NCBI GenBank assembly: GCA_047639575.1
Contig: JBLIOB010000001.1
Span: 178 to 64,177 of the forward strand
Direction: 5' to 3'
DNA: 64,000 nt
Source: Parvicellaceae bacterium
GTDB taxonomy: Bacteria > Bacteroidota > Bacteroidia > Flavobacteriales_D > Parvicellaceae
Shown here: positions 237 through 20,390 of the stretch, in pieces
Layout of the letters: each line of letters opens with the position of its first letter
How positions within the stretch are numbered: the first letter of the stretch is position 1
The notes under the pieces: generated by a model
What the model was told of the DNA's origin: nothing
Database searches by the model: none
Seen by the model: the letters and a program-made list of their open reading frames with translations, nothing else
Made by a program: the position numbers and the translations under genes

Positions 237-725
237 CTAAATCCAGGCTATTGTGAAAGCGCAAAAGGCAATAGCCAAAATAGCAAGCAACGTTCTTGTC
301 AACGATTTTTTCCAGAGATCCAATCGAACAACACCTCTCTTATGACTTGTTAATTCATTGATTGCATATAAAACATCCTCAATAAACGTGTCAGAATCTT
401 TTAAAAGATAGTCTGTAGCCCCCTTTTTAATAATCTGTATAACAACATTCAATTTAGATTGCCCACTAAAAAATATTACGGGAAGCGAAGTTTTATTTTT
501 TTTCGCCTTTTTCATAATGTCTAGCCCATTTTCCGCCTTGCTATTTTCACTATCCAAATGATAGTCTAATATTAAGACATCAGAGTTTGGGTTAGATGAA
601 AAATAATCATCGCCAGACACAAAAGCAGACACATTATAATTAGGATTCTTACTTAGTTCATAAGACAATAACGATCTTACAATTTCACTATCTTCGATAA
701 TATCGATATTGTATTTCTCTTCCAT
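237..725 (-). CDS. Response-regulator receiver domain protein with C-terminal transmembrane tail anchor
   Basis: 162 aa. Receiver signature: IDIIEDS acidic pair, VLILDYH phospho-acceptor Asp, IFFSGQ, KKGATDYLLK. The protein ends in a hydrophobic helix, TLLAILAIAFCAFTIAWI. Overlaps the upstream gene by 38 nt. Confidence 0.75.
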   Translation of the reverse strand: MEEKYNIDIIEDSEIVRSLLSYELSKNPNYNVSAFVSGDDYFSSNPNSDVLILDYHLDSENSKAENGLDIMKKAKKNKTSLPVIFFSGQSKLNVVIQIIKKGATDYLLKDSDTFIEDVLYAINELTSHKRGVVRLDLWKKSLTRTLLAILAIAFCAFTIAWI

Positions 726-1818
726 GGCGTTTGTTTTTTATTAGGTTATTTCTCTCCTCAAAAAGTTTAACATTTATGCTCAATTCTTTGAAGTTTATCA
801 TTTTCAAAAATCTATAGTTACGAATCACAACCAGTGCTTCAAACGTTATAGCGTAGATCAGTACTAATTTTACCAAAATGATTGACTCAAGCCCTTCTTC
901 AATAAAATAATGTCCACATACCCCTATTAAAAGTGCCAATAAAAGCACAAAAGTAGTCGCTTGGGTATGATTAAAGCCTAAAATCAACAATTTGTGATGA
1001 AGGTGATTTCTGTCTGCCTTAAATGGCGTATTCCCCATTAATATTCGACCAATCAAAAGTCTAATAGCATCAAGTATGGGCACCAATAGAAAGCCAATAA
1101 TTAGAAAAATATCTGGATTCATCGTTATACCTTTACTTGAGATAGTCGAGATTGAAAACCCATATATTAATAGACCTAATGCCAGCGAACCGGAGTCACC
1201 CATGTAAATTTTGGCTGGTGAATAATTGAGAACTGCAAACCCAAGCAAACTTAGTGTTAACCAACCTAACATTGGTAAATTAACGGTGCCTGATTCAAAG
1301 TTCATAAAGAATAATATGGCAAAAATTCCAATCGAGAAGGTGACACATAATCCATCTATTCCATCTAAGAAATTAACCGCATTAATCAATCCTACGCCTA
1401 TTACAAAAGAAATTAAAATTGAAATTAGTAAGCTTAATTCTCCAATTCCAAACAATCCATATAATGATTCTATCCTATAGCCTGAACATACAACTAGACC
1501 AACTGCAAAAAACTGCAAAATAAACTTAATTTTATAGGAGAGATCGGACCTATCGTCTATGGCTCCTGTAACTAATAAAATTGCGGTTGAAATCAAAAGT
1601 GCCATTTCTTTACTGAAGATTTCCGGTTTGCAGAATACAACAAAACCTATCAAGGAAACCGTTACAAACACTACTCCTCCAGAAGTAGGAACGATGTTCT
1701 TATGAAGTTTTCTTGCATTTGGATGATCTACAAGACCTAACCTACCAGCAAATTTGATTTGAAGTTTGAGTAATGCATAAGTTGCAACAATAGGTATTAG
1801 AAATATAAAATAATTCAT
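688..1818 (-). CDS. Undecaprenyl-phosphate sugar-1-phosphate transferase (MraY/WecA family, GT4)
   Basis: 376 aa polytopic membrane protein with motifs DDRSDL, NAVNFLDGIDGL and MGDSGSLALG. Confidence 0.8.
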   Translation of the reverse strand: MNYFIFLIPIVATYALLKLQIKFAGRLGLVDHPNARKLHKNIVPTSGGVVFVTVSLIGFVVFCKPEIFSKEMALLISTAILLVTGAIDDRSDLSYKIKFILQFFAVGLVVCSGYRIESLYGLFGIGELSLLISILISFVIGVGLINAVNFLDGIDGLCVTFSIGIFAILFFMNFESGTVNLPMLGWLTLSLLGFAVLNYSPAKIYMGDSGSLALGLLIYGFSISTISSKGITMNPDIFLIIGFLLVPILDAIRLLIGRILMGNTPFKADRNHLHHKLLILGFNHTQATTFVLLLALLIGVCGHYFIEEGLESIILVKLVLIYAITFEALVVIRNYRFLKMINFKELSINVKLFEERNNLIKNKRHGREIQYRYYRR

Positions 1819-5649: not shown

Positions 5650-8274
5650 CTAAGCGACCAGAGATAGCTCCTCTATGATTATATTAATTGTAGTTTTTTT
5701 GTCATTATTTTCAATCGATCTATAAACACCTTTGTACTTACTAGAAAAATCACTGAATAATTGCTGATATTTTAAATTAAGTATCCTAATTTGATTTGCA
5801 GTCATTTCTTGTTTTCTACTTAAAATAACTTCTGGAGACGCATACAGATAAAAATTCATTTCTGGTTTTCTTACCAGGCCGTAAAAAAGCTTCACGAGTT
5901 TAGGGCTCAGTGATATATTAGATCTCTTTGCATCGTTGATAAAATCAAAATAATACCGATCATAAAGCACTATTTTCCCTCGCCACGTATATTTATAGGC
6001 AACGTAGATTTGTCCTAACAAATAGTCTAAATAGTAGTACCCAAACCTAAATATTGAGCTAACTACACTCTCATTTGTTCCTTGACGCGGAAGATTTATT
6101 GAAGCTCTTTTATCTGCTACATCCTTTCCATGCTGATATGCACTAAGTATTGGCAGTAAATTTGGCCGATGCCTTAATAAAACAACTTCTTTTCTAAACT
6201 GTTTTTTCAATCGATCTTCTAACTCCTGAACGATAGTAGTTTTACCAACTCCGTCAACTCCGCTAATTGTACATATAAAACCGCGATTGTTAATCAACTG
6301 TCGCAACGTATCAAAAAAGTAAACAAAACGTTCTGTCACCTTCTTTTTCAAAGAGAAACTTGATCTAAATACACTTAACATGTATCTCGATTTACTTGGC
6401 GTCAAATCCAAAAGCTCATCGATCGACTGATAGTTAAACATATACTTACTATTAAAATAGCGAACAGCTTTACCTTTATCTAGCCAATTCGCTCGTTGAA
6501 ATAGTTCTTGATATTTTTCCGGGATACACCCTTTATTCAGACCATAAAACAAAATGCAATTCTCAAGTTCAAATTGCAATTTTGGCCGCATTACTCCAAG
6601 TTGCTTCATACTTGAATTAATTAACACTTCTTCATTTAAGTATTGTTTGCCCTTACAAACCATTTTCGAAATCAGATCTATATATAATACCTCTCCGGTT
6701 AACAGTGATATCATCAATTGGGACAAGTAACTTTTCGTTACCACTTTAATCTTACTGATGCCAGGGTGCATTTTTAAATACTCGATCGTTTCCTTTCTCA
6801 ACCCCGTAGAAACTAATATGTCAAGATCCGCCTCCAAGCTTATTTCTAACGGATGAACGAATTGTTTAATAAACGTGTGACGCTTGCCTTCCAAGAAAAT
6901 ACAGAGATCACGAATTAGTGATATTCTATCATTTTCAGCTACACCATAACCTAACCCACGGAAAGCTTCTTGCCAACAGAACACTAGTCTTAATTGATCA
7001 ACTGACAATTCTGATTGACAAGACATCATTGCTAGTTGAAAAGACACATTATCTAATAAATAGTACTTTAAGTATTTAACAGGATCAATATCCCATTTTT
7101 GGACATATTCTTCCAATCCCCATTTCTTAAACTCATTCCAAATTGTGCATTCAATAGCCTGCCAAGAATTGTTATTAATGAGTACACCTCGTTGAATGAT
7201 GAAATGAAAAAAATCGGAAAGCATCGAACAGTAATTTGACGCTAGTTCAAAATCTATTAAGTACAATGACTCACCGCTATTAGAAGTATTCCAAGGAGTG
7301 AAATCACCATGACTTTTGGTCATTAAAACTTGATTACCTTTTAATTCTGCAAGAATTTCTTCTAATGACGCCCCCAGATATGGCGAATGTGGAATAACTT
7401 TTGACTTCGAATTATGAAGTAAATCAATATTGCTCACTATGGAGAGATACTGACGAGATTGCTGAAAAGGAAGTTGAATCACTGATTTTTCCATCACCTC
7501 TTTTAAGAAAACCACATGAGATTTAGATAGTTTTTTTGACGCTTGAATCTTTTGGGTTTCACCGTTTACAATGGCATAATTAGAAAAGCTATTGACTTTG
7601 GGCAAAGAGACTGAGTTTAAGTTTAAATTCTTCCAAACCCCATTCATTTTTAATTCATGATTCTGTAATTCCCTTGTTAAAGCAGTTTTGGATATTTTCA
7701 CAAAATATGAATGCCCGCTGTGCTCATAAAAAACAATAGGTGTATTCCCGAAACCTTTACTACCTCCAGAAAACGCATAATTAAAACCTAAAATTTTGAT
7801 ATGATTACAGGCACTGACGTCTGGCCGAACAATCACATTACAAAACCCTGAAACAAACAATCTACTCGCTTTTATTAAATGCAATAAACGCATCCCAGTA
7901 ACAAGAACTTTTGATCTTTTAGTAAAAGGCTGATATAGCTTTAAAAAACTCAAAGACCGTTTACTAAACATCCACCGAAGGCTGCCATCTTTGCGGTTGA
8001 TAAAACTCATTTTTATTTTCTCAGTGTGGCCGACAGACAAACTGCATGAAAAGTCCAAAATCAACTCAAAGTCATCCAATTCGTAAGACTTATACCTGAT
8101 CATCTCTCCTGCGAGATTCACCAAGATTTTATTGGCCTTGACACCCACATACTCACCTATAATTGGCTCATTTTCAACTAATCTTTGATACGGATCGAAA
8201 ATGAAAACACTTTTATTAGATGGGACCATCGAATGGATCCAATTATTTAGGTCTGAGGCGAGAATATTTTTCAT
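5650..8274 (-). CDS. Fusion protein: APH/choline-kinase-like phosphotransferase + thymidylate-kinase-like P-loop kinase
   Basis: 874 aa. Central HGDFTPWN catalytic loop and LIDFELAS (the DFG-equivalent) match the aminoglycoside/choline kinase fold. C-terminal ISGVDGVGKTTIVQEL Walker A with LLRHRP resembles dTMP-kinase-like proteins. About 190 aa between the two are unassigned. Confidence 0.55.
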   Translation of the reverse strand: MKNILASDLNNWIHSMVPSNKSVFIFDPYQRLVENEPIIGEYVGVKANKILVNLAGEMIRYKSYELDDFELILDFSCSLSVGHTEKIKMSFINRKDGSLRWMFSKRSLSFLKLYQPFTKRSKVLVTGMRLLHLIKASRLFVSGFCNVIVRPDVSACNHIKILGFNYAFSGGSKGFGNTPIVFYEHSGHSYFVKISKTALTRELQNHELKMNGVWKNLNLNSVSLPKVNSFSNYAIVNGETQKIQASKKLSKSHVVFLKEVMEKSVIQLPFQQSRQYLSIVSNIDLLHNSKSKVIPHSPYLGASLEEILAELKGNQVLMTKSHGDFTPWNTSNSGESLYLIDFELASNYCSMLSDFFHFIIQRGVLINNNSWQAIECTIWNEFKKWGLEEYVQKWDIDPVKYLKYYLLDNVSFQLAMMSCQSELSVDQLRLVFCWQEAFRGLGYGVAENDRISLIRDLCIFLEGKRHTFIKQFVHPLEISLEADLDILVSTGLRKETIEYLKMHPGISKIKVVTKSYLSQLMISLLTGEVLYIDLISKMVCKGKQYLNEEVLINSSMKQLGVMRPKLQFELENCILFYGLNKGCIPEKYQELFQRANWLDKGKAVRYFNSKYMFNYQSIDELLDLTPSKSRYMLSVFRSSFSLKKKVTERFVYFFDTLRQLINNRGFICTISGVDGVGKTTIVQELEDRLKKQFRKEVVLLRHRPNLLPILSAYQHGKDVADKRASINLPRQGTNESVVSSIFRFGYYYLDYLLGQIYVAYKYTWRGKIVLYDRYYFDFINDAKRSNISLSPKLVKLFYGLVRKPEMNFYLYASPEVILSRKQEMTANQIRILNLKYQQLFSDFSSKYKGVYRSIENNDKKTTINIIIEELSLVA

Positions 8275-8295: not shown

Positions 8296-8312
8296 ATGCG
8301 TAATTCATGCCA
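8296..8312 (-). promoter_or_regulatory. Weak sigma-54 (-24/-12)-like element
   Basis: Minus strand reads TGGCAT-GAATT-ACGCAT, with the GG and GC dinucleotides at consensus spacing (consensus TGGCAC-N5-TTGCW). It lies about 22 nt upstream of the start of 5650..8274. The -12 half deviates (ACGC instead of TTGC). Confidence 0.2.
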
Positions 8313-9698: not shown

Positions 9699-10798
9699 TT
9701 ATTATAAAGTTTGTTGATTTCTTGAGCAATTAAAGTCCAACTAAAATGGTGAGCAATGGTTCTTCTACAATTTTCTGCCATTTTACTGTAATGTTTAGTG
9801 CCATGCAATTCTTGAAATTTTTTAAGCGCTTCAGCCAAAAGCTTTGGAGAGTTATTTTCTAATGATAAGCCACAATGGTATTTACTAACCTGTTCAGCCA
9901 AATTAGTTTCTGGAGATACAATTACCGGAACACCCAATGCCATACTTTCTAAGACAACACCAGGAATTCCTTCGTTCCTTGATGTTAGGACCAAGGCTGT
10001 AGACTCTCCTATCAACTCATCTTTTTCTTTCCCAAATAATGGACCAAGACATACAATATGTTTGGCCAAATTATTTTTGCGGATTAGAAGCTGAAAAGCT
10101 TTTGATTGATTTCCTCCGCCAATTACTTTCAAGTTTATATCTACTCCTTGTCTAACGCATTCCTTTACTGCCTGAACAAGTATATCCAAGCCTTTAGTTT
10201 GAATGTCAATTCTACCGCAAAAAACAAATTGAAGTTTAGATGACTTTTTCCCTGAGAATGATTTCAACTCTTGTCCATTAGGGATTAATACATACTTTGT
10301 GCTAATCTTTTTAGATCGTATACCCTCTATTTCAGATTGACCAATGAGCTGAATTACTTTTGCATGATTTAGAAAATAACGATCGAACAATATAAAGTAA
10401 AGGGTCTTTTTCAATTTACTAGTATGCAATACTCGTAGATTATAGCCGCCATGAAGATTCACCACGTACTTTATATTCTCTTTGATTAAAAGTCGGGACA
10501 CCATAAAAAATTGGGGAATAAAAGCACCATGAAAATGAAATACAACGCCATTTGAATCTTCTTCAAGAATTGCTTCTTTCAATCTCCGATCTAAACTAAA
10601 TTTTGCTTCATCTTGAAATAATTTAGTTATATATGGGCGTTTTGGGTAATCATGGACAAGTACCTTTGTAATCCCCCAAATTTCAACATTTAAACCAATA
10701 CTATTTTGAGCAGCTGCCAAGCTACTCACTACCTTATTTACTCCGTTTTGGCGATTAGGATTAGCTTTCCCAAGAATGATATGAATAACCTTCATCAT
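9695..10798 (-). CDS. Glycosyltransferase family 1
   Basis: 367 aa. LVLTSRNEGIPGVVLESMALGVPVIVS motif. 4-nt overlaps with both neighbours. Confidence 0.7.
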   Translation of the reverse strand: MMKVIHIILGKANPNRQNGVNKVVSSLAAAQNSIGLNVEIWGITKVLVHDYPKRPYITKLFQDEAKFSLDRRLKEAILEEDSNGVVFHFHGAFIPQFFMVSRLLIKENIKYVVNLHGGYNLRVLHTSKLKKTLYFILFDRYFLNHAKVIQLIGQSEIEGIRSKKISTKYVLIPNGQELKSFSGKKSSKLQFVFCGRIDIQTKGLDILVQAVKECVRQGVDINLKVIGGGNQSKAFQLLIRKNNLAKHIVCLGPLFGKEKDELIGESTALVLTSRNEGIPGVVLESMALGVPVIVSPETNLAEQVSKYHCGLSLENNSPKLLAEALKKFQELHGTKHYSKMAENCRRTIAHHFSWTLIAQEINKLYNN

Positions 10799-12021
10799 CT
10801 TTTGTGCAATTTTAACTTGCCAAGGAAATAAGTCAAACCAATGACTTGTGTACTATAAAATCCAATTATTACACCCGCTAATCCCAATTCATGAATTAAC
10901 GGATATGCCAGCAGTAAACTCACCGCGCTGCTAATAGCATAACTATGAAAAATCAATCTATTCTGCTCAATTGTTCGAATATAGAATCTAAGTATTGTAC
11001 CAGCATACACAAGGAAGTACATGATAGCGAAAGCGCTAAAAAGAGTCCCATAACTAATCATTTCCTGTCCATAGACCCAGGATAAAACTTCTTGATCAGC
11101 AAACACAAAAAATAGAATTATGGTGCTTACTGGAATCAGCGCTTTTAAAGACAATATGCGCGTTTCTTTTTTGAGCAATTTCAAACCACCAACAGACATT
11201 TGTTTCGCCATGGAAATCGGAACAATATTTTCTAGGGCCAAAAAGAGGACATGTAATACTCCCATTAAATTTTGCATCATCCGAACTACACCCAGTGCGG
11301 ACACACCCAGCCATAAACCAGCCATCAATCCAAATGCATTACCAGAAAACCATTGTAAAAAAGAGGTCCCAACAAGGTATTTCGAAAAAGCCCAATTTTG
11401 CTTGGCGAGTTTCCATATTCGCTTCCTTTTAATTTCGGCTATTCTAACTGGATACCTTGCCATCCCCATTAAAACACTCAATCCATAAGTTAAAACCAAA
11501 ACATATACTGCAGAAGTAATGGTCAGAACATCTTGATATGATAGCAGAAGAATCAATGGCACTTGCAACCCATAGGCAACAGCATCTCTAAAAAACACCT
11601 TGATTTCCGATTTACTTACAAATCCAATTCTTCGATCAAAATCTTGTATCTGATAAAGGAAAATAAATAGACTTCCTCCCACGGCAAGCTCTATACGTTC
11701 CGATTGAAATACAATAAGAAAAACGACAAATGCAACCAGCATTGAAAGAGAAGCCACGAATAAAGCTATAATCTTTTGCTGTCCCAAGTAGAATGGTTTA
11801 TTCATCTTTTCGGCATACTGACTGTAAATCGTTTGTGAGATAAAACTTTGCTGAAAACTGAATAAAACGAAATTGGTCATCCAGATAATACTAAACTCTC
11901 CAAAGGACTCAATACCAATTTTTCTAGTAAGAACAATTGCCATTAAGAAATTAGTTCCACTAACTAGCCCTTGATCCGCAAACACGAGCAATGTTCTATA
12001 TTTCCACCACCATCTTCTCAC
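10795..12021 (-). CDS. wzx: Polysaccharide flippase (Wzx/MOP superfamily)
   Basis: 408 aa polytopic membrane protein. Position and size match a Wzx flippase. Translationally coupled to the wzc-like gene. Confidence 0.55.
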   Translation of the reverse strand: MRRWWWKYRTLLVFADQGLVSGTNFLMAIVLTRKIGIESFGEFSIIWMTNFVLFSFQQSFISQTIYSQYAEKMNKPFYLGQQKIIALFVASLSMLVAFVVFLIVFQSERIELAVGGSLFIFLYQIQDFDRRIGFVSKSEIKVFFRDAVAYGLQVPLILLLSYQDVLTITSAVYVLVLTYGLSVLMGMARYPVRIAEIKRKRIWKLAKQNWAFSKYLVGTSFLQWFSGNAFGLMAGLWLGVSALGVVRMMQNLMGVLHVLFLALENIVPISMAKQMSVGGLKLLKKETRILSLKALIPVSTIILFFVFADQEVLSWVYGQEMISYGTLFSAFAIMYFLVYAGTILRFYIRTIEQNRLIFHSYAISSAVSLLLAYPLIHELGLAGVIIGFYSTQVIGLTYFLGKLKLHKR

Positions 12022-14303
12022 CTAATGTAATACCACAAATAGTTCTTAATTCTCTTGATAAAGTTGGCTCCCTGCGCTTCATAGCTCAATCCGCTCCCAA
12101 TATATAACCCGTTAAAATTACTAGCCTTATGAGCAGAATTTAATATGATATGAATATTGTCTATCCCATGCTCTTGCTGTATTAGATCCGGATTTACAGC
12201 AAAATGCTTTTTGGTATATCTTGCTCTTATTATAAATAGATTAATCGAGGCCAATTTCATCATTGGGATTGCTTCTGGAGAAATGGCAGTTGGCGGAGTA
12301 TCGATGACCACCACATCATACTTTTTGAATAAGTTAGTAGTCAAGCTTTCAAATTTTTTAACACCACTTATTTGAGTAGCTTCATCTCGAATTCCTCTCA
12401 CAACAATCAAATCAGGAAGAGACGAATCCGTATAAATTACATGGTCTTCTAGCGGCCCAATATCTTTAAACGTACTAATTAGCTTTTCTTCTTCCAAACT
12501 ATTATTCAAACCGTGTAAGCCGTTACAAGAATCAAAATCCGCATATAAAGTGGAGTATCCCAATTGTGTGAAATGTTTTGCCATTCTTGTCGCAACAAGA
12601 CTTCTACCTTCTCCTCTTATAGAAGATGCAATAGCCACAATTTTAGGCTGTTCATCATCTATTTTGCTAAGGATCCCAGATGCCAAATTCCCAACCTCAA
12701 CATCCAAGTTATTGAATCGAAATTTCTTTCTAACAACGCCAATAATAGAAGTATCCGTTTTCCGTTCAATATCAGTTCGATAAATAATTTTGCCTGATGC
12801 TGAGTCTTTTATAAAAACAAACGCAATACCGAGAATAATTCCTAGCAAACCTGACACAAAAGTTATTAGGGTTTTATTAGGCGAAATTGGTTTCGAATTC
12901 AATGTCGCAGGCTGTATAATTCGATGAAAAGAGATTAACGCGCTACTAGCAATTGCAGCCTCTGTTCGCTTCTGAGATAGAAATGTATAGACCTGTTCAT
13001 TTAGTAAAAACTCTCGTTCTAAAACCTTCATTTCTCTCTCTCTAGTAGGAAATCCGTCAAACATTTGTTCCTCTTTGGAAATCCTACTTTTCATCTCTAA
13101 TCTCTTCGTTTTAATATCACTTTTACTTGTTTTAATCGCTTCTTCTATGTAATTTTTTATTTCCTGTATTTTCTTGTCAACAGCCAATATTTTAGGATCT
13201 TCTACCGTGTATTTCAACAGTAAATCATGCCGTTCATCGATGTATTGTTTCATCTTTTTCACTAACTCAGTCATTAGTAAATCTCCATAACCAAAATTGA
13301 TTGAGGTCTGATTAAAATAGTCCCCCGACTGCATGTATTCATCCAAAGAATCAATTGATTCCTGCTGTATTTGAACGTTAATTAACTGTATCTTCAGATT
13401 AGCCAATGACCGCAATCCTGTCTCGGTTTCTTGCTTTGTGTTTACAACCTTATTTTCTATTTTATATTTCTCTAATACACCTTCAGACTCAACCAATTTT
13501 TGCGTAACCTCAGCCAGCCGCTCATCTATAAAGTTCAGCGTGTTTTGTGCAGCTGAACTTTTTGTTTTAACGTAATCTTCGATATAAACTTCACATAGGT
13601 GATTAACAATATGCTGGGCTCTTCTAGCATTCTGATCATCATAAACGATTCTGAGAACAGGTATTTCTTTATCAATTGCATTAATATGCAGATGTTCCAA
13701 AACTTTATTTACAACAGATTCTGAAGAATTCAATTCAATTCGATACGAGCCAACAGCCATTTGATCGTCATAGCCTTCTTTTATGCTTATCACAACCATA
13801 TAATCTTTTAATTTAATAGAGTCTCCATAATGATATTTAGACTTCGTTAATGCTCCTTTAACAAGCTCAATACCATTTTGTGATGCGTTGACAACAATAT
13901 TATTTGGCGGTGCCTTATCTTTATAAGAAACAAAATCAATCTCCAACGGAGAATCAACGCCATAAATCAATTCTTCTTTTCCAGCTCCTTGTCTGAACAC
14001 TCGAACACCTGCATTAATTTGATTCACAACGGCCTTTAATAATAAAGGTGATTCCAAAACCTGTGCTTCAGATTCTATCTTGTTTTCTGATGAAAAAATA
14101 TCCAGGTCGCTATATAAATTGTTGCTAGAGAATCCATACGCCTGATCATCTAATTTAATTTTCGCCACACTTTGATAAATTGGCGTAGCCTTTTTTATAT
14201 AATTCCTAGCTAATAGAATTGCTAATACAAGTACCAACGCTATAAATGGCGACCCCTTCACATAAGGCAAAAGTCCAATTTTTATTTGCTGAATTTGATT
14301 CAT
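12018..14303 (-). CDS. wzc: Wzc/GumC-type chain-length determinant with BY-kinase-like domain (Walker A Lys replaced by Arg)
   Basis: 761 aa. N-terminal Wzz-like periplasmic/coiled-coil region flanked by TM helices. C-terminal P-loop domain has SSIRGEGRS and Walker B VVVIDTPP. Tyr-containing tail NYLWYYIR. Confidence 0.7.
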   Translation of the reverse strand: MNQIQQIKIGLLPYVKGSPFIALVLVLAILLARNYIKKATPIYQSVAKIKLDDQAYGFSSNNLYSDLDIFSSENKIESEAQVLESPLLLKAVVNQINAGVRVFRQGAGKEELIYGVDSPLEIDFVSYKDKAPPNNIVVNASQNGIELVKGALTKSKYHYGDSIKLKDYMVVISIKEGYDDQMAVGSYRIELNSSESVVNKVLEHLHINAIDKEIPVLRIVYDDQNARRAQHIVNHLCEVYIEDYVKTKSSAAQNTLNFIDERLAEVTQKLVESEGVLEKYKIENKVVNTKQETETGLRSLANLKIQLINVQIQQESIDSLDEYMQSGDYFNQTSINFGYGDLLMTELVKKMKQYIDERHDLLLKYTVEDPKILAVDKKIQEIKNYIEEAIKTSKSDIKTKRLEMKSRISKEEQMFDGFPTREREMKVLEREFLLNEQVYTFLSQKRTEAAIASSALISFHRIIQPATLNSKPISPNKTLITFVSGLLGIILGIAFVFIKDSASGKIIYRTDIERKTDTSIIGVVRKKFRFNNLDVEVGNLASGILSKIDDEQPKIVAIASSIRGEGRSLVATRMAKHFTQLGYSTLYADFDSCNGLHGLNNSLEEEKLISTFKDIGPLEDHVIYTDSSLPDLIVVRGIRDEATQISGVKKFESLTTNLFKKYDVVVIDTPPTAISPEAIPMMKLASINLFIIRARYTKKHFAVNPDLIQQEHGIDNIHIILNSAHKASNFNGLYIGSGLSYEAQGANFIKRIKNYLWYYIR

Positions 14304-15052
14304 TATCTTGTCAACAATGTACCCAACAGCACTATAGCGGTTAACGTGCTTGCAATTGGGATTAGCGTTGGAGCCTTCTTCTCTATTGTTTTCCCAGGGC
14401 GCGCAGGAACATGAATTATATCACCATCTTTTAAATTGATTTGTAACAACTTTAACTGATCCTTTCCGTCCAGGTTTAATTGATACATTTTATCATCTCG
14501 AATGAATCTAATTTTTTTTGTCTGTGCGTAATACAGCATTCCTTCTGCCTTACCTATCAGTGTAACTAGCGTGTTCTTTTCCTCATCTAGCAAATAATTA
14601 CCGGGTGATTTTACCTCGCCCAAAATCGTTACTTCTTTATTAAGCAGCCTAACTTTGATAATAGGATTCAGCAAAAAAACAGAGTATAAACTCACCAGAG
14701 TGTCCTCGGCCTGAGAAAGAGTGAGCCCTCCTAATTTAATTAACCCTAGTTTGGGAAAACTCACCTCTCCTTTTGAATTAATTAAAACCCATTTTCCGAA
14801 GGACTCATGAGAATTATAAATCGTGAATAATGATCCTACACTCAAATCATCATGATTCCATATGCTTAGACTTATTTTATCATCTGGCTTTAGCACATGT
14901 TGTTTTGTGCCCATTGTATCTAACAACGCACTGTAATCTTTTTGTACTTCAACTTTATTAAAGTTCTTACTAGCACCACAAGACGTGGCTATTAATAGTA
15001 TTGTCATCAAATAAAATTGAAAAAAATTAAATCGATTCATCTTAAAATCCAT
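14303..15052 (-). CDS. wza: Polysaccharide export outer-membrane lipoprotein (Wza family)
   Basis: 249 aa. Lipobox LLIATSCG. Poly_export-like LKPDDKISLSIWNHDDL. C-terminal hydrophobic helix. Confidence 0.75.
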   Translation of the reverse strand: MDFKMNRFNFFQFYLMTILLIATSCGASKNFNKVEVQKDYSALLDTMGTKQHVLKPDDKISLSIWNHDDLSVGSLFTIYNSHESFGKWVLINSKGEVSFPKLGLIKLGGLTLSQAEDTLVSLYSVFLLNPIIKVRLLNKEVTILGEVKSPGNYLLDEEKNTLVTLIGKAEGMLYYAQTKKIRFIRDDKMYQLNLDGKDQLKLLQINLKDGDIIHVPARPGKTIEKKAPTLIPIASTLTAIVLLGTLLTR

Positions 15053-15536
15053 TTTGTAGCAACATGATTATCGACCAAACAATTAAAATGAACAGCACAA
15101 CAATGGGTACTGTAATTTTGGAAAGAAAATGATAACGTTCATTTTCCGCCAGTAAATAATTGAGTTGGAATGCTCTTCTAACCACAGACGCCATTTTCAA
15201 AAGACCATCATCACCTTTGTCTATGTAGTCGTATGCACCATATTTAAGGGCGTTTATTGCAACCTCTAATTCTTCTTGTGCACTTAAAAAGATGACTTGA
15301 ATTTCTGGATATAACCCCTTAATTTGTTTCAAAATGGTAAGGCCATCACTATCACCTAAACCGTGATCCAGTAACACAATTTCGGGGATCTTGTATAAAT
15401 TGTCAACCGCTGTTTTTCCCGAATGATATACTTCAATCTGGGTTAAATGTTCATTTTGAAGCTGCTTTTCGATCGCATTCGCATAAAAAACATCGTCTTC
15501 TACAACAAAAATTAGAGGGAATTTTCTACGTTTCAT
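15042..15536 (-). CDS. Response-regulator receiver domain protein with C-terminal transmembrane tail anchor
   Basis: 164 aa. Receiver signature FVVEDD, VLLDHGL, IFLSAQ, KYGAYDYIDK, then ITVPIVVLFILIVWSIIMLL near the C-terminus. The 3' end overlaps the wza start by 11 nt. Confidence 0.75.
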   Translation of the reverse strand: MKRRKFPLIFVVEDDVFYANAIEKQLQNEHLTQIEVYHSGKTAVDNLYKIPEIVLLDHGLGDSDGLTILKQIKGLYPEIQVIFLSAQEELEVAINALKYGAYDYIDKGDDGLLKMASVVRRAFQLNYLLAENERYHFLSKITVPIVVLFILIVWSIIMLLQNGF

Positions 15537-15548
15537 ATTGGGGGAGTT

Positions 15549-15977
15549 TTATGATACTGATTTAGTCATCAGATCAGGGTTAATAGATCTGTTAGTTGTA
15601 TTGATAAATTCTTGTGACATCACAAATCTCTGAATACGGCCAATAGGAATAACTTTTCTAGAAATCGCCCAGCTATTTTCTGGGGAGAGATGATAGATTG
15701 GCACATCAGACTGGAATAAATTCACTTTCTCTAGAAACTGCTTGGTCAGAATTCCATTCCCAGCATAATATTCATCTAATATGCACAGATCAGGAGTGAT
15801 CGCTGACACCGCCATGAATGAATTTTCGGATGCCTCTAAATTAATTAATTGCGTATGCTCTATATCCAGATGATGTTGCCAGAAAAAATCGCTTTTGAGC
15901 GTAGAGCTGATAATGAGTAATGTGGAATTTTTCATGTCTGTCGATTTGATATCAACAGTCCAATCTATAGTCCACAA
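15549..15977 (-). CDS. Hypothetical protein, possible degenerate (pseudo-)receiver
   Basis: 142 aa (start may be the internal MKNSTLLIISS). Beta-alpha pattern LLIISS / DLCILDEY / VPIYHLS resembles a receiver, but the N-terminal acidic pair is Ser-Ser. Confidence 0.35.
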   Translation of the reverse strand: MWTIDWTVDIKSTDMKNSTLLIISSTLKSDFFWQHHLDIEHTQLINLEASENSFMAVSAITPDLCILDEYYAGNGILTKQFLEKVNLFQSDVPIYHLSPENSWAISRKVIPIGRIQRFVMSQEFINTTNRSINPDLMTKSVS

Positions 15978-16045
15978 AATGCAACTGCCTGATATACATA
16001 AAGTTACATTGCTTGAACTAAGAAGGTATTCCCGAATTGGGAAGT

Positions 16046-18508
16046 TTAATCCTCAATTTGAGAAAAATCGTTGCGAAGAGCATCCACCGACTCCTGAAGC
16101 CCTAGCAAGAAAGAATTCACTAGATCATTATCAATCTTTGTATCAAACGCTTCAATCAACCTCACTAATTCCTTTAGTTGTGGAGCTACCGTATCAATAG
16201 ATGGTTTTAATTTATGAGCTACTTTAGACATCTTCAATACGTCTCCTTGTGACATTGCTTCTTCTAAAGACGAAGAACATTCAACACATGATTTCACAAA
16301 CGTTGAAAGCATTTTGAAAATAAATTCTTGATCACCATCTGCTATTCTAGCAAGTTTATCTAGAGAATAATAATTAGTGGAATCGATAATTTTTTGAAAA
16401 GATGGGTTTGCATTTTTCAATTCTTTTGGTTCTTCGATCGCGTTAATATTATTAGATATAATGGCGTATAGATCATTCATACTGAACGGTTTACTTAAAT
16501 AATCTTGCATTCCAACCGTAAGACACTTTTGATTGTCCCCCTTTATTGCGTTAGCCGTTAAAGCAATAATTGGCGTTGATAATTTCAGTTTTTCTCTTAT
16601 AATTTCAGTTGCTTCATACCCATTTAAATTAGGCATCATAATATCCATTAGAATAAGATCAAATTTATATTGCATTAGCATCTCAACAGCTTCAAGACCG
16701 TCACAAGCTTCCTCTACTATCACACCCTTCTTCATTAACACAGCAGACGCCATCATTCTATTCATCTCATTATCATCTACCAAAAGAACTGAAATTCCAT
16801 TCAAGTTTTGAATTTCTGCAACCTCCAATGCTTCCGGAAAAGGTTTTTTTGATATTTTAAGAGGCAGCTTAACCGTAAATAAAGAACCTATTGTAATTTG
16901 ACTTTGCACTTCAACACTTCCATCCATAATTTCAGTGAGTTGCTTTACGATTGCTAATCCTAATCCAGTCCCTCCGTATTGTCTAGTAACTCCTTCATCC
17001 GATTGGTTAAAACTTTCAAAAATATGATGTAGTTTATCATTTGGAATTCCAATGCCGCTATCTTTAACTTCAATGCATAGTTCATGTAATTCAGAAGACA
17101 TCTTCTTTTGTTGAACCGTGACAACCACACCGCCATTTTGAGTAAACTTAACCGCGTTAGAACACAGGTTAAGCATTACTTGATAAATTCTCAATGAATC
17201 GCCCAGGTAACAGTCGGCAACGTTTTTCTCCACATTAATTTTAAAGTAGATCCCTTTTTCCTCAGCTCGAAAAGCAACAGCTGCATAAATTTGATCTGAA
17301 ATAGATTTGAATTGAAAAGGAATTTTTTCAATACTTACTTTCCCTGCCTCTAATTTTGAAAAATCAAGAACATCATTGATAATACCTAATAAATTATTTG
17401 AAGATATTTGAATGGACTCTAAATAATGAAGTTGTTCTTCACTTAATTGGGAGTCGAGCAATAAGTGGTTTAAGCCAATAATTCCATTCAACGGAGTTCT
17501 CATCTCATGACTCATTTTAGCTAAGAATTCTTCTTTAATTTGAGCGGAACGTTCGGCTAACATTTTAGCATCTCTCAGGTCCTGCTCCATCGATTTTCGA
17601 ACAGTTATATCAACATACACTCCAATAGAACCAACAACCTCATTTTTATGATTAAACACCGGAGCGCCAGAAATCAACACCCATGCATATTCGTTATTTT
17701 TCTTCTTTAACTTAACCTCATAAATCGAAGACTGCCCTTTACTCCTCTTCATATTTTCTGAATCCATAACATTATTATAATGTTCATCCAAAAATGTGAG
17801 AGCAGCATTCTTTCCAATTAACTCTTTTTGGGAATATCCTGACAATTCGCAAAACATAGGGTATGCTCTAATAATAGACCCCTCGAGATCTACTTCCAAA
17901 AGTCCCAACTCCATGTTTTCTATAATTTTATGGTACTTCTCTTCGTTCCTTTTAACTTCTTGTTCTAGCTTGTTTTTTTCTGTTATATCAGATATTTGAA
18001 CCAACCGGGCGACTCTATTCTGGAACGGTATCGTGCAAGCCTGGATTTCCACAATTAATTCATCACCACTTTTAGTAATATGGGTCCATTTTAGAATGTT
18101 CTCAAAACCGTCACTACTATGTACAATTTCAGAAACATCTTTTATAAGCCTATCCTTATCTTTTTTCAGGTGCATTTCAAAAATTGACAGTTTAATAAAC
18201 TCTTTTTTGGAATAGCCATACTTTTCAGTTGCCCGCTCATTTACTTGTAAAATTTGATAGTCATTAGGACAGAAAATCAGCAAGGGCAATGGATTATTAT
18301 CGAATAACATTTTAAAATGTTCTGCTCTTTCCTTCAATTCCTCAGCTCGAAGTTCAACTTTAGACTCTAATCTTTCATTTAGATTCTTCAATCCTTCATT
18401 CGCTTCATAGAGTTTTGTAGCTTTTTCCTCAAGGATTTTTTCCGCCTCTATTCTAGCTGCATGTTCACGCTCAAATTTCCGTTTCCATATATCAAGTTCA
18501 CTACTCAC
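16046..18508 (-). CDS. Hybrid sensor histidine kinase (coiled coil, 2 PAS, HisKA, HATPase, receiver, HPt)
   Basis: 820 aa. H-box FLAKMSHEMRTPLNGIIG. G-box GGTGLGLAIVKQL. Receiver VLLVDDNEMN...LILMDIMMP...ALTANA. C-terminal HPt-like VAHKLKPS. No TM segment, so predicted cytoplasmic. Confidence 0.85.
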   Translation of the reverse strand: MSSELDIWKRKFEREHAARIEAEKILEEKATKLYEANEGLKNLNERLESKVELRAEELKERAEHFKMLFDNNPLPLLIFCPNDYQILQVNERATEKYGYSKKEFIKLSIFEMHLKKDKDRLIKDVSEIVHSSDGFENILKWTHITKSGDELIVEIQACTIPFQNRVARLVQISDITEKNKLEQEVKRNEEKYHKIIENMELGLLEVDLEGSIIRAYPMFCELSGYSQKELIGKNAALTFLDEHYNNVMDSENMKRSKGQSSIYEVKLKKKNNEYAWVLISGAPVFNHKNEVVGSIGVYVDITVRKSMEQDLRDAKMLAERSAQIKEEFLAKMSHEMRTPLNGIIGLNHLLLDSQLSEEQLHYLESIQISSNNLLGIINDVLDFSKLEAGKVSIEKIPFQFKSISDQIYAAVAFRAEEKGIYFKINVEKNVADCYLGDSLRIYQVMLNLCSNAVKFTQNGGVVVTVQQKKMSSELHELCIEVKDSGIGIPNDKLHHIFESFNQSDEGVTRQYGGTGLGLAIVKQLTEIMDGSVEVQSQITIGSLFTVKLPLKISKKPFPEALEVAEIQNLNGISVLLVDDNEMNRMMASAVLMKKGVIVEEACDGLEAVEMLMQYKFDLILMDIMMPNLNGYEATEIIREKLKLSTPIIALTANAIKGDNQKCLTVGMQDYLSKPFSMNDLYAIISNNINAIEEPKELKNANPSFQKIIDSTNYYSLDKLARIADGDQEFIFKMLSTFVKSCVECSSSLEEAMSQGDVLKMSKVAHKLKPSIDTVAPQLKELVRLIEAFDTKIDNDLVNSFLLGLQESVDALRNDFSQIED

Positions 18509-19044
18509 TTTCGTGCAATCTGAAAATTAATTTCGGTGCCATTGCCAGATTTGTCTTCTAACTCAACCTCTAATGTCTCTTTGTAATAAATTCCACATCC
18601 ATGAATTAATCCAAGGGCAAAATGGCCCATTGATCGTTCACTTTTATAAATCATTTCAAGATGATTCTGATCATGCCTGATCATTTGAAAGGATGGCAAT
18701 TCTGCATCCGGATATAGTTTTACAACCTCCACATGAACGTATGATTCAACCTTCTCTAAAAAATCCAATGAATTCTCTATACCTGCAAAAAAATTCTGAT
18801 ATGTATTGCTAAAACTATTGAACATGTATTTCCCAAACGTTTCCAGCAAAATAGGAACTTCTATGTTTTTTAGTTTAGAAAGAGCCACTACTAATTGAAC
18901 TATTTCCTCATGAGGATATGTGCCAACTGAAGTATATGCCCCTATATGACCCAAATTTGCAGATTGAATCATTTTATCCGAGACGTCAAGTCCAAAATTA
19001 TCTTCAACCATTTTAATGTATTCCGTAAACACTACTCCTTTCAT
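18505..19044 (-). CDS. hnoX: H-NOX (haem nitric oxide/oxygen binding) sensor protein
   Basis: 179 aa. Starts MKGVVFTEYIKMV. Candidate proximal His in SYVHVEVVKLYP followed by a conserved Pro. Y-x-S-x-R haem-propionate motif as YKSER, then LGLIHG. 4-nt overlaps with the kinase and the sigma-54 regulator genes. Confidence 0.8.
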   Translation of the reverse strand: MKGVVFTEYIKMVEDNFGLDVSDKMIQSANLGHIGAYTSVGTYPHEEIVQLVVALSKLKNIEVPILLETFGKYMFNSFSNTYQNFFAGIENSLDFLEKVESYVHVEVVKLYPDAELPSFQMIRHDQNHLEMIYKSERSMGHFALGLIHGCGIYYKETLEVELEDKSGNGTEINFQIARK

Positions 19045-20390
19045 ACCAATTCTTTTTGTTCTTGTAATAATCTATAAATTGTTGATTTACCTACATCTAA
19101 TATTTGGGCAACCTTTATAACGTTGTTATTATTTTGATTTAGATATAATCTAATAATTTCATTACTGTATTCTTTCAAAGTAAGTTCTTGGTTCATTAGC
19201 TCCTCAATCCCAACATCACCTGACGAAATTGCGTGAAAATTAATATCATCAACATCTATTGTATTATTTTCACATATGGCACAAGACAATTCAACCAAAG
19301 CTCTTAGCTCCCTTACATTTCCAGGGTAATTGTACGTGAGTAATCTGTCTTGAGCCCGCTGAGTAATATCGGTCGGTGCTAATTTGTTTTGCTTTTGAAA
19401 ATCTTTAATAAAAAATTTAGCTAAAATCAGTATGTCTTCCTTTCTTTTTCTCAGGGCTGGCAATTCGATCGGTAAACCGATTAATCGATAATAAAGATCT
19501 TCTCGAAAGTTTCCATTTTTCACCTCCTCTTGGAGATTTTTATGAGTTGCACAAATAATTCGAATGTCTAGTTTCACTAATGAATTATCTCCAATTCTGC
19601 TCAACTCTCTTTCCTGTAGTACTCGTAAAAGTTTAGCTTGTAAGGCAATGTCCATGTCTCCTATCTCATCTAAGAATAGAGTTCCTTTGTTTGCCGCTTC
19701 AAACTTGCCAATTCGTCTTGAATTTGCACCTGTAAAGGCACCTTTCTCGTACCCGAACAATTCACTTTCCAGAAGCTCCGAAGGGATTGCAGAAACATTC
19801 ACGGCTACAAACTTGCTTTTTTTTCTGTCTGAATTATAATGAATTGCTTTGGCCACAAGCTCCTTCCCTGTTCCCGTTTCGCCATATATAGAAACGTTAA
19901 TATTCGTTTTGCAAGCTTTTTCCATTAACTTAAAAACGCCTATTAACAATTGGCTATTTCCTTTTATATAATTGCCAAATGCATATTTATTAATTACTTC
20001 TTCTTCAAGCTCTACTATTCTTTCTTTTAGCTCTTGTTTTTCCAGAACAATATTAATCGTATTCCATAATCTTTCTTTTGTATCATCGTCTTTCACTATA
20101 TAGTCATAAGCGCCATTATTCAATAAAGTAATCGCAGTTCTCACATCTTCCTGACCTGACACAACAATTACCTCCGACTGAGGACACGATGACAACAACC
20201 TTTTTAAACAGTCTTCTCCACTGATATCGGGAAGACCAAAATCCATGATGATTAGATCGAACCGATTTCGACTTGAGAAAAATGATTTAGACGTTTCAAA
20301 ACATTGAACTTCGAAATCAGGGTTTAAGCTCACCTGATACTTCAACATTTGGGAGTACCATTGGTCGTCTTCAATAATAGCTATTTTCAT
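19041..20390 (-). CDS. Sigma-54-dependent response regulator (NtrC family)
   Basis: 449 aa. Receiver (IIEDD, LIIMDFGLPD), AAA+ domain with GETGTGKE, the GAFTGA loop and RED/RLIG motifs, and a C-terminal Fis-type HTH. Confidence 0.9.
   Translation of the reverse strand: MKIAIIEDDQWYSQMLKYQVSLNPDFEVQCFETSKSFFSSRNRFDLIIMDFGLPDISGEDCLKRLLSSCPQSEVIVVSGQEDVRTAITLLNNGAYDYIVKDDDTKERLWNTINIVLEKQELKERIVELEEEVINKYAFGNYIKGNSQLLIGVFKLMEKACKTNINVSIYGETGTGKELVAKAIHYNSDRKKSKFVAVNVSAIPSELLESELFGYEKGAFTGANSRRIGKFEAANKGTLFLDEIGDMDIALQAKLLRVLQERELSRIGDNSLVKLDIRIICATHKNLQEEVKNGNFREDLYYRLIGLPIELPALRKRKEDILILAKFFIKDFQKQNKLAPTDITQRAQDRLLTYNYPGNVRELRALVELSCAICENNTIDVDDINFHAISSGDVGIEELMNQELTLKEYSNEIIRLYLNQNNNNVIKVAQILDVGKSTIYRLLQEQKELV

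Follow-up and report, generated by a model that had tools for sequence, protein, structure and literature searches.

Export of group 1 capsule through the Wza-Wzc machine of Escherichia coli K30 is controlled by the Wzc/Wzb tyrosine-phosphorylation cycle; beyond this model, post-transcriptional switching of Wzx/Wzy-dependent capsule and exopolysaccharide (EPS) export is poorly understood. Biofilm formation in Shewanella, Vibrio and Pseudoalteromonas is controlled by nitric oxide (NO)-responsive phosphorelays of the H-NOX/HnoK type. The first receiver-based mechanism was published in 2025 for EpsW of Myxococcus xanthus, a single-domain regulator that in its phosphorylated state (EpsW~P) binds the membrane enzyme EpsZ and so switches on EPS synthesis at the post-translational level (PMC12802240). 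In the PEP-CTERM/EpsH-associated PrsK/PrsR system, the genes for an NtrC-family regulator and a kinase accompany Wza-like and chain-length-determinant genes (PMC1569441; TIGR02915). A full-text literature search returned no description of membrane-anchored, membrane-bound or transmembrane response regulators and, other than EpsW, no receiver linked to outer-membrane polysaccharide export (OPX) or polysaccharide co-polymerase (PCP) proteins. Here we describe REC-TM, a single-domain response regulator with a predicted C-terminal transmembrane (TM) anchor, encoded immediately ahead of wza in a 64,000-nucleotide stretch of DNA (the window) from a Parvicellaceae bacterium (assembly GCA_047639575.1, contig JBLIOB010000001.1, positions 178 to 64,177). 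The pairing of REC-TM with Wza, which recurs across Bacteroidota and at times takes the form of a single fused protein, points to a mode of on-off control of capsule or slime export that has received little attention. With a probability of about one half, we propose that REC-TM is a membrane-tethered phospho-acceptor, the input port of the export machine, fed through a histidine phosphotransfer (HPt) domain in parallel with an NtrC-type regulator.

REC-TM resembles EpsW in being a stand-alone receiver without an output domain, encoded with a Wzx/Wzy-dependent pathway; the dedicated sensory kinase input of EpsW and its post-translational action on a membrane component may also have their parallels here. 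However, EpsW is soluble, targets the large monotopic transferase EpsZ, is served by the Che-like kinase DifE and comes from myxobacteria, whereas REC-TM has its own TM anchor, is coupled to wza (and fused to it in relatives), is NtrC-like, lies beside an H-NOX-associated hybrid kinase with an HPt domain and is restricted to Bacteroidota. Orthology of the two is unlikely. With the H-NOX/HnoK systems the locus shares an H-NOX gene that adjoins and overlaps a kinase gene, multiple candidate acceptors that contain receivers and a presumed matrix or biofilm output. The known outputs of those systems are cyclic di-GMP (c-di-GMP) enzymes or transcription factors, while the candidates here comprise a sigma-54 activator, a pseudo-receiver and, within an export operon, a bare receiver anchored in the membrane. 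Pfam finds no GGDEF, EAL or HD-GYP domain in the locus, which would link a haem-based NO/O2 sensor to polysaccharide export without c-di-GMP. As in the Wzc/Wzb cycle, reversible phosphorylation would regulate a PCP-OPX machine from the cytoplasmic side of the inner membrane, but the switch would be a His-Asp receiver and not Tyr autophosphorylation; the Wzc encoded here has a Lys to Arg change in its P-loop, and related loci lack both the P-loop and the Tyr cluster. PrsR, finally, is a full sigma-54 activator, and its system as described contains neither a tail-anchored bare receiver nor a receiver-Wza fusion.

The gene for REC-TM is an ATG-started open reading frame (ORF) of 164 codons at 15042-15536 on the minus strand. 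Pfam recognizes a Response_reg domain (PF00072; E 3.4e-19, 69.5 bits against a cut-off of 30.2) at residues 9-108 and no other domain, including any output domain; this Pfam envelope, which together with the conserved columns delimits the receiver, corresponds to positions 15213-15512 (minus strand). The canonical receiver positions are occupied by the acidic triad Glu13, Asp14 and Asp15, the phospho-acceptor Asp57, Ser85, the switch aromatic Tyr104 and Lys107. Across an alignment of 20 relatives Asp57 and Lys107 are invariant, with Asp14 and Ser85 at least 90% conserved, and REC-TM is a complete receiver that can probably be phosphorylated. The initial annotation of this stretch had called it a canonical receiver on the basis of the motifs FVVEDD, VLLDHGL, IFLSAQ and KYGAYDY, all four of which are present, and had given it a single C-terminal TM helix, which is borne out as well. 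The only hydrophobic segment is formed by residues 141-160 (ITVPIVVLFILIVWSIIMLL; 15057-15116, minus strand), with a Kyte-Doolittle (KD) 19-residue value of 2.94, and there is no N-terminal signal sequence. Arg134, His136 and Lys140 precede the helix, and the four residues that follow it (QNGF) carry no charge. We infer an N-in topology, with the receiver facing the cytoplasm; in the fusion proteins described below the corresponding segment serves as the signal peptide of Wza and for that reason has to be N-in.

An AlphaFold2 (AF2) model of REC-TM, built with the family alignment (pLDDT 93.9), has the (beta-alpha)5 fold of a receiver, with five strands (residues 9-12, 34-37, 53-57, 80-85 and 103-106) alternating with five helices. 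Helix alpha5 is modelled as one unbroken helix from residue 111 to residue 163, running into the TM segment, and in the model a rigid stalk, about 20 residues long, raises the receiver above the membrane helix. Pairwise identity within the TM clade falls from 53% in the receiver core to 28% in the linker and 13% in the TM segment, where hydrophobic character is kept; the tail therefore looks like an anchor and not like a specific helix-packing partner. REC-TM is not a member of the NtrC family: neither PF00158 nor a helix-turn-helix (HTH) domain matches, the protein ends after the TM helix, and the NCBIfam NtrC models match no more than its receiver, at 58 bits where 559 would be required; the match to TIGR02915 (E 3e-13) likewise scores far below the cut-off of that model. 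Neither REC-TM nor the pseudo-receiver encoded next to it nor the REC-Wza fusions score above the cut-off of any NCBIfam model, and relatives carry database names that are unspecific or mistaken ('DNA-binding NtrC family response regulator', 'polysaccharide export protein').

Directly downstream lies the gene for a Wza-type OPX lipoprotein (14303-15052, minus strand), with Poly_export and SLBB domains in Pfam and, judging from homologue N-termini, the lipobox LIATSC. The junction (15038-15052, minus strand) was read directly from the sequence and compared with those of relatives. With the wza start at the ATG at 15052 (MDFKMNRF...) the two genes overlap by 11 nt, as the initial annotation had it; with the second in-frame ATG at 15040 (MNRFNFF...) a 1-nt spacer follows the receiver stop codon (TAA, 15044-15042), and that overlap disappears. 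The sequence alone fits either start, and coupling is tight in both. A broken fusion or frameshift in the window was considered and rejected, the REC-TM tail lacking a lipobox and Wza having a full signal peptide. Along the minus strand, the NtrC-type gene overlaps the H-NOX gene by 4 nt and this in turn the kinase gene by 4 nt; a gap of 110 nt leads to a 128-residue ORF and one of 12 nt to REC-TM, after which overlaps of 11, 1, 4, 4 and 4 nt connect REC-TM, Wza, Wzc-like, Wzx-like, GT4 and Wzy genes. After a further 128 nt comes the gene for an 874-residue P-loop protein, followed at varied spacing by three glycosyltransferase genes and one for a PF00953 initiating transferase. The 110-nt gap sets the NtrC/H-NOX/kinase unit apart, and by this spacing REC-TM is part of the export train, not of the sensor unit. 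The genes identified by Pfam as Wza, Wzc, Wzx-like, Wzy, glycosyltransferases and initiating transferase are all on the strand of REC-TM, which is thus a bare receiver in a Wzx/Wzy-dependent polysaccharide locus.

Close relatives were collected by a word-indexed search, and loci by a scan of species-representative genomes with phmmer, hydropathy profiling and a tree. The former gave about 20 close relatives of 145-167 residues, nearly all full-length ones with a hydrophobic tail. The latter returned 80 loci, all from Bacteroidota, and a C-terminal TM-like helix is present in 60 of the 81 family members that are not NtrC-type proteins. An exhaustive profile search puts the family at 828 representatives (E <= 1e-30), with a TM tail in 66 of the 83 single-receiver-sized proteins among its top 150. 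At such frequencies the tail is not a product of chance. The full cassette recurs at about 40-50% identity in Parvicellaceae and Crocinitomicaceae genomes; four metagenomic or metagenome-assembled genome (MAG) loci share the order NtrC-type, H-NOX, kinase-HPt, small ORF, REC-TM, Wza, Wzc, Wzx, GT4, Wzy and a protein of about 885 residues. One more distant family member lies behind a PAS hybrid kinase, with no wza.

Twenty-five of the 81 non-NtrC members are linked to wza. The receiver abuts wza in every one of them (in three as an in-frame fusion); in most, the two are between -29 and +31 nt apart, four having ATGA overlaps, and tight coupling to wza is a hallmark of the wza-linked receivers. 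These fall into three forms. Eight loci, including the window and others from Parvicellaceae, Crocinitomicaceae and Putridiphycobacter, have the TM tail; counting kinases within 700 nt upstream and H-NOX genes within 5 kb, all eight have a kinase, in each case an HPt-bearing hybrid, and seven have H-NOX. Fourteen have a receiver of about 144 residues without a TM helix, ending in a short hydrophobic tail of the K/R-F-F-S-x-F type (nine with a kinase, none with H-NOX), and come from Flavobacterium, Chryseobacterium, Lewinellaceae, Saprospiraceae, Chitinophagaceae, Spirosomataceae and Marinifilaceae. The remaining three encode a REC-Wza fusion (one with a kinase, one with H-NOX) and belong to Chitinophagaceae, including Phnomibacter, and an unclassified Bacteroidota MAG. 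In total, 18 of the 25 have an adjacent kinase and eight have H-NOX. Upstream sensors across the family range from H-NOX kinase to PAS kinase to BLUF to none; because these upstream genes vary while the Wza-Wzc-Wzx-GT4-Wzy block does not, the block, and not the H-NOX kinase, is the constant partner of the receiver lineage and the sensory input is lineage-specific.

In the fusions the receiver runs into Wza without a stop codon (L051, 9989-11173; L061, the complete genome of Phnomibacter sp. MR, 9956-11164; L074, 2538-3728), and Pfam finds Response_reg, Poly_export and SLBB_2 in a single ORF. The hydrophobic segment that follows the receiver is the lipoprotein signal peptide of Wza with its lipobox Cys, for instance ...KKGWRRFLPVLSIVTLLIVSIMGTGC followed by SS. 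Querying a global protein collection with a fusion gave about 40 clusters (90% identity; P0026-P0063, P0065 and P0073) with PF00072, PF02563 and PF22461 in one protein of 374-445 residues, down to 39% identity, among them proteins from Hymenobacter rigui, Hymenobacter sp. 102 and Phnomibacter. All 15 junctions inspected contain, in order, the receiver, a basic 'RFFSLF'-like motif, the hydrophobic h-region, the lipobox Cys and a mature 'TQNLF' sequence. Assembly errors were ruled out as their source by the in-frame fusion in a complete genome, by Pfam and by the number and divergence of the clusters. The fusions provide a naturally occurring example of a lipoprotein signal peptide preceded by a folded cytoplasmic domain. 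Their loci keep the order REC-Wza, Wzc, Wzx, GT4, Wzy, with a variable upstream gene. In Hymenobacter sp. 102 this is a BLUF blue-light sensor gene (L098, 8394-8837) with no kinase nearby, which hints at light input to the export module; in Phnomibacter sp. MR rpoN, for sigma-54 (L061, 7931-9457, minus strand), is divergent and immediately upstream of the fusion operon, and another fusion locus has an unrelated Kdp kinase upstream.

The receivers of the form without a TM helix close, just before wza, in a motif N/P-x-hydrophobic-hydrophobic-x-K/R-F/L-F/L-S-x-F (L053, L063, L066, L073, L078, L080, L082 and L086), and the signal peptide of the fusions opens with this motif. The best 11-residue hydrophobic moments of tails without a TM helix are 0.40-0.90 (0.40-0.74 for those bearing the motif), whereas across the genome the median is 0.43 and the 90th percentile 0.63. 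A moment modestly above background is no more than suggestive of amphipathic membrane-targeting helices.

The Wzc-like polysaccharide co-polymerase (12018-14303, minus strand; Pfam) is atypical. In an alignment of 25 homologues its Walker A motif is GEGRS, with Arg for Lys where bacterial tyrosine (BY) kinases have G-K-S/T, and its Tyr tail is short (NYLWYYIR). The same Lys to Arg change is seen in three of nine aligned TM-type loci (the window, L002 and L047), and all 16 other aligned loci, three with fusions and 13 of the form without a TM helix, have a non-canonical P-loop (SKEHL, PEHHT, NHGAR and GEGKR are examples) and have lost the C-terminal Tyr cluster. The three other Wzc homologues of this genome, used as a control (contigs C8, C120 and C290), are canonical, with GEGKT and YGYGYG tails. 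This degeneracy fits a His-Asp switch that would supplement or replace the tyrosine-phosphorylation cycle.

In the mechanism we favour, REC-TM as input port of the export machine, the soluble hybrid kinase associated with the H-NOX sensor of NO or O2 would pass phosphate through its HPt domain to REC-TM and, in parallel, to the NtrC-type sigma-54 activator, which would adjust transcription. Translational coupling would ensure that REC-TM is made in step with Wza. Phosphorylated REC-TM would present an altered alpha4-beta5-alpha5 surface, or an altered oligomeric state, at the membrane and modulate the PCP-OPX export and polymerization machine post-translationally through protein-protein contacts, the most attractive target being the atypical Wzc with its degenerate tyrosine-kinase P-loop. 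Phosphotransfer from the HPt domain, topology, target and sign of regulation (activating or inhibiting) are all inferred. A far wider proposal is tentative, and we find it doubtful: that throughout Bacteroidota a His-Asp receiver is a built-in subunit of Wza-Wzc machines and replaces the autokinase cycle where Wzc is a pseudokinase, the signal peptide of fused forms serving as receiver anchor after signal peptidase II (SPase II) cleavage and REC-TM being the stand-alone version of the cleavage product. With the receiver tied to export proteins in three ways (TM tail, short hydrophobic tail and Wza fusion) and paired with Wzc proteins that have lost kinase motifs, the comparison suggests that a second type of receiver-based control is widespread in Bacteroidota, a phylum in which the regulation of polysaccharide export has been little studied. 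Cultivable carriers make the idea testable: Hymenobacter and Phnomibacter for the fusions, Flavobacterium and Chryseobacterium for the form without a TM helix.

Several observations weigh against REC-TM as input port. The NtrC-type regulator of the same operon could just as plausibly be the acceptor, and REC-TM would then perhaps be a modulator only. An adjacent kinase is missing from seven of the 25 wza-linked loci, which means that not every such receiver has the H-NOX kinase as its partner, and the cassette is patchy, being present in only one of 24 other genomes of the same family. The link between receiver and Wzc P-loop is a correlation only, and the poor conservation of the TM sequence suits simple tethering and does not point to a specific membrane partner. 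Nor are all REC-TM proteins tied to export: the tree contains a well-supported clade of 46 orphans, mostly from Prolixibacteraceae, with housekeeping neighbours. These orphan proteins (L011-L060; about 166 residues; for example 9974-10501 in L016, Prolixibacter bellariivorans) have a strongly conserved juxtamembrane region and tail, SNKRYKVGVVLFF...YPQIFG, and no kinase or wza nearby.

The kinase gene (16046-18508, minus strand) encodes, according to Pfam, a soluble hybrid histidine kinase of PAS-PAS-HisKA-HATPase-REC-HPt architecture. Both its phosphorylatable His residues are intact, His333 in SHEMRTP of the DHp domain and His765 in HKLKPS of the HPt domain, the Pfam match of the latter (E 8.3e-5, 23.2 bits) being slightly under the cut-off of 24.6. 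An H-NOX-associated hybrid kinase with its own HPt domain is therefore a neighbour, as originally proposed, but REC-TM is not directly downstream of it, since the conserved 128-residue ORF and the 110-nt gap intervene. The haem NO/O2-binding H-NOX protein (18505-19044, minus strand; Pfam HNOB, E 3.3e-41) is encoded by a gene that overlaps the kinase gene by 4 nt, and beyond it lies the gene for the NtrC-type sigma-54 activator (19041-20390, minus strand; REC-AAA+-HTH in Pfam), a rival or parallel phospho-acceptor. Hydropathy analysis reveals no TM segment in the NtrC-type protein, H-NOX, the kinase or the pseudo-receiver, and by this measure REC-TM is the sole membrane-embedded signalling component of the locus. 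Outside its own family, the closest receiver in the genome to that of REC-TM is the one of the NtrC-type protein (31% identity), and there is no significant BLAST similarity to the internal receiver of the kinase. Being NtrC-like and unlike the internal receiver fits an acceptor role for REC-TM and not that of a relay module; the same 31% identity makes the NtrC-type protein an equally good acceptor. To call REC-TM the obvious terminal phospho-acceptor, as had been done, overlooks that activator, and a branched relay serving both proteins appears at least as likely as a relay ending at REC-TM.

In such a branched relay REC-TM might do no more than buffer the phosphoryl groups of the HPt domain, as a phosphate sink or competitor that sets the threshold for the NtrC-type activator to transcribe polysaccharide genes. 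Single-domain receiver sinks are known from branched phosphorelays, for example the CheY1/CheY2 pair of Sinorhizobium chemotaxis. The NtrC-type regulator heads the operon in all complete TM-type loci and in ten of the 14 of the form without a TM helix, one HPt domain could serve two receivers so alike, and REC-TM has no output domain. However, membrane anchoring and obligatory coupling or fusion to Wza would be superfluous for a sink, several wza-linked loci have no NtrC gene and seven, as noted, no adjacent kinase. Nor does a sigma-54 promoter signal stand out in the locus: the 64-kb window contains no exact match to TGGYAY-N5-TTGC, and sites with three mismatches are not enriched (134 against 128.5 expected), none falling in the 110-nt gap before the pseudo-receiver gene. 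We consider the sink unlikely, though the best placed of the alternatives.

The fusions raise a different possibility, namely that receiver and tail act at the translocon or in lipoprotein maturation, controlling the insertion and processing of Wza and not the assembled machine. REC-TM would then be the free-standing equivalent of a receiver with its lipoprotein signal peptide, a notion to which the commonness of in-frame fusions, the lipobox Cys at every inspected junction, the receivers without a TM helix that end in the motif with which the signal peptide of the fusions begins and the tight coupling to wza in all forms lend some appeal. In the window, though, the signal peptide of Wza is complete in itself and the REC-TM tail contains no lipobox, which makes receiver and Wza physically separate here. 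That signal peptidase II processes the fusions is an assumption, and we know of no precedent for a receiver that controls lipoprotein maturation. Control of Wza biogenesis thus seems quite improbable.

The closest described system offers a further model, in which the phosphorylated receiver would bind and activate the initiating phosphoglycosyl transferase, and not Wza or Wzc, much as EpsW~P activates EpsZ by direct binding (PMC12802240). The window does encode such an enzyme, a polytopic WecA/MraY-like transferase (688-1818, minus strand; PF00953 in Pfam, about ten TM-like segments), whose gene is overlapped by 38 nt by that of a second REC-TM paralogue of 162 residues (237-725, minus strand; Pfam; TM segment at residues 144-162, KD 2.09), and in L051, L054 and L075 transferase genes closely precede those of the signalling proteins. 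This second paralogue has no orthologue among 40 relatives, its best matches being NtrC-type proteins, and sits on a very long branch; by analogy, it and the transferase could be a receiver-transferase pairing of the EpsW-EpsZ kind. The receiver at 15042-15536, by contrast, is coupled, and in relatives fused, to wza and not to a transferase, and the polytopic WecA-type enzyme differs from the large monotopic type that is under EpsW control (PMC12802240), which makes an EpsW-like role for REC-TM itself very unlikely.

The small ORF upstream of REC-TM (15549-15935, minus strand; 128 residues) has no Pfam hit and is a pseudo-receiver. Its AF2 model (pTM 0.72) is a (beta-alpha)5 domain whose best matches in the Protein Data Bank (PDB) are all receivers, including the pseudo-receiver of CikA, and hhalign aligns it to the REC-TM family profile with a probability of 87.8%, placing its Asp54 and Ser84 on Asp57 and Ser85. 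Ser-Ser-Thr replaces Glu-Asp-Asp, and the conserved Lys is missing. The ORF is conserved in position in four related loci, coupled to the start of REC-TM, and is encoded only in H-NOX/TM-type loci. This exclusive placement, together with the absence of TM segments from all other signalling proteins, could make REC-TM a membrane docking site that recruits the soluble H-NOX/kinase complex to the export machinery, perhaps via the pseudo-receiver and with phosphorylation secondary, but the family-wide conservation of the catalytic receiver residues implies that phosphorylation matters and many members have no kinase nearby, so we rate docking the least probable reading of all.

A sigma-70 promoter scan of 14900-16300 gave nothing above shuffled background, with a model that was not built for Bacteroidota promoters, and a terminator scan of the same region found none after the kinase gene. 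Further along the export train, the 874-residue protein (5650-8274, minus strand) has only a weak thymidylate-kinase-like P-loop match; its position in the cassette is conserved in relatives (885-887 residues in L001, L002 and L007). The 128-nt gap before its gene contains the sequence TGGCATGAATTACGCA (8297-8312, minus strand), which keeps the GG-N10-GC spacing of sigma-54 sites and, with three mismatches to the consensus, is not significant alone. Elsewhere in the same genome, contig C325 carries a second module (L009, 236-4706) composed of a 181-residue H-NOX protein, a 1117-residue hybrid kinase with an HPt domain and a 141-residue receiver. The latter belongs to the REC-TM family and has no TM tail, the contig ending 84 nt further on. 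This second module indicates that the H-NOX/kinase-HPt/receiver design is reused in this genome.

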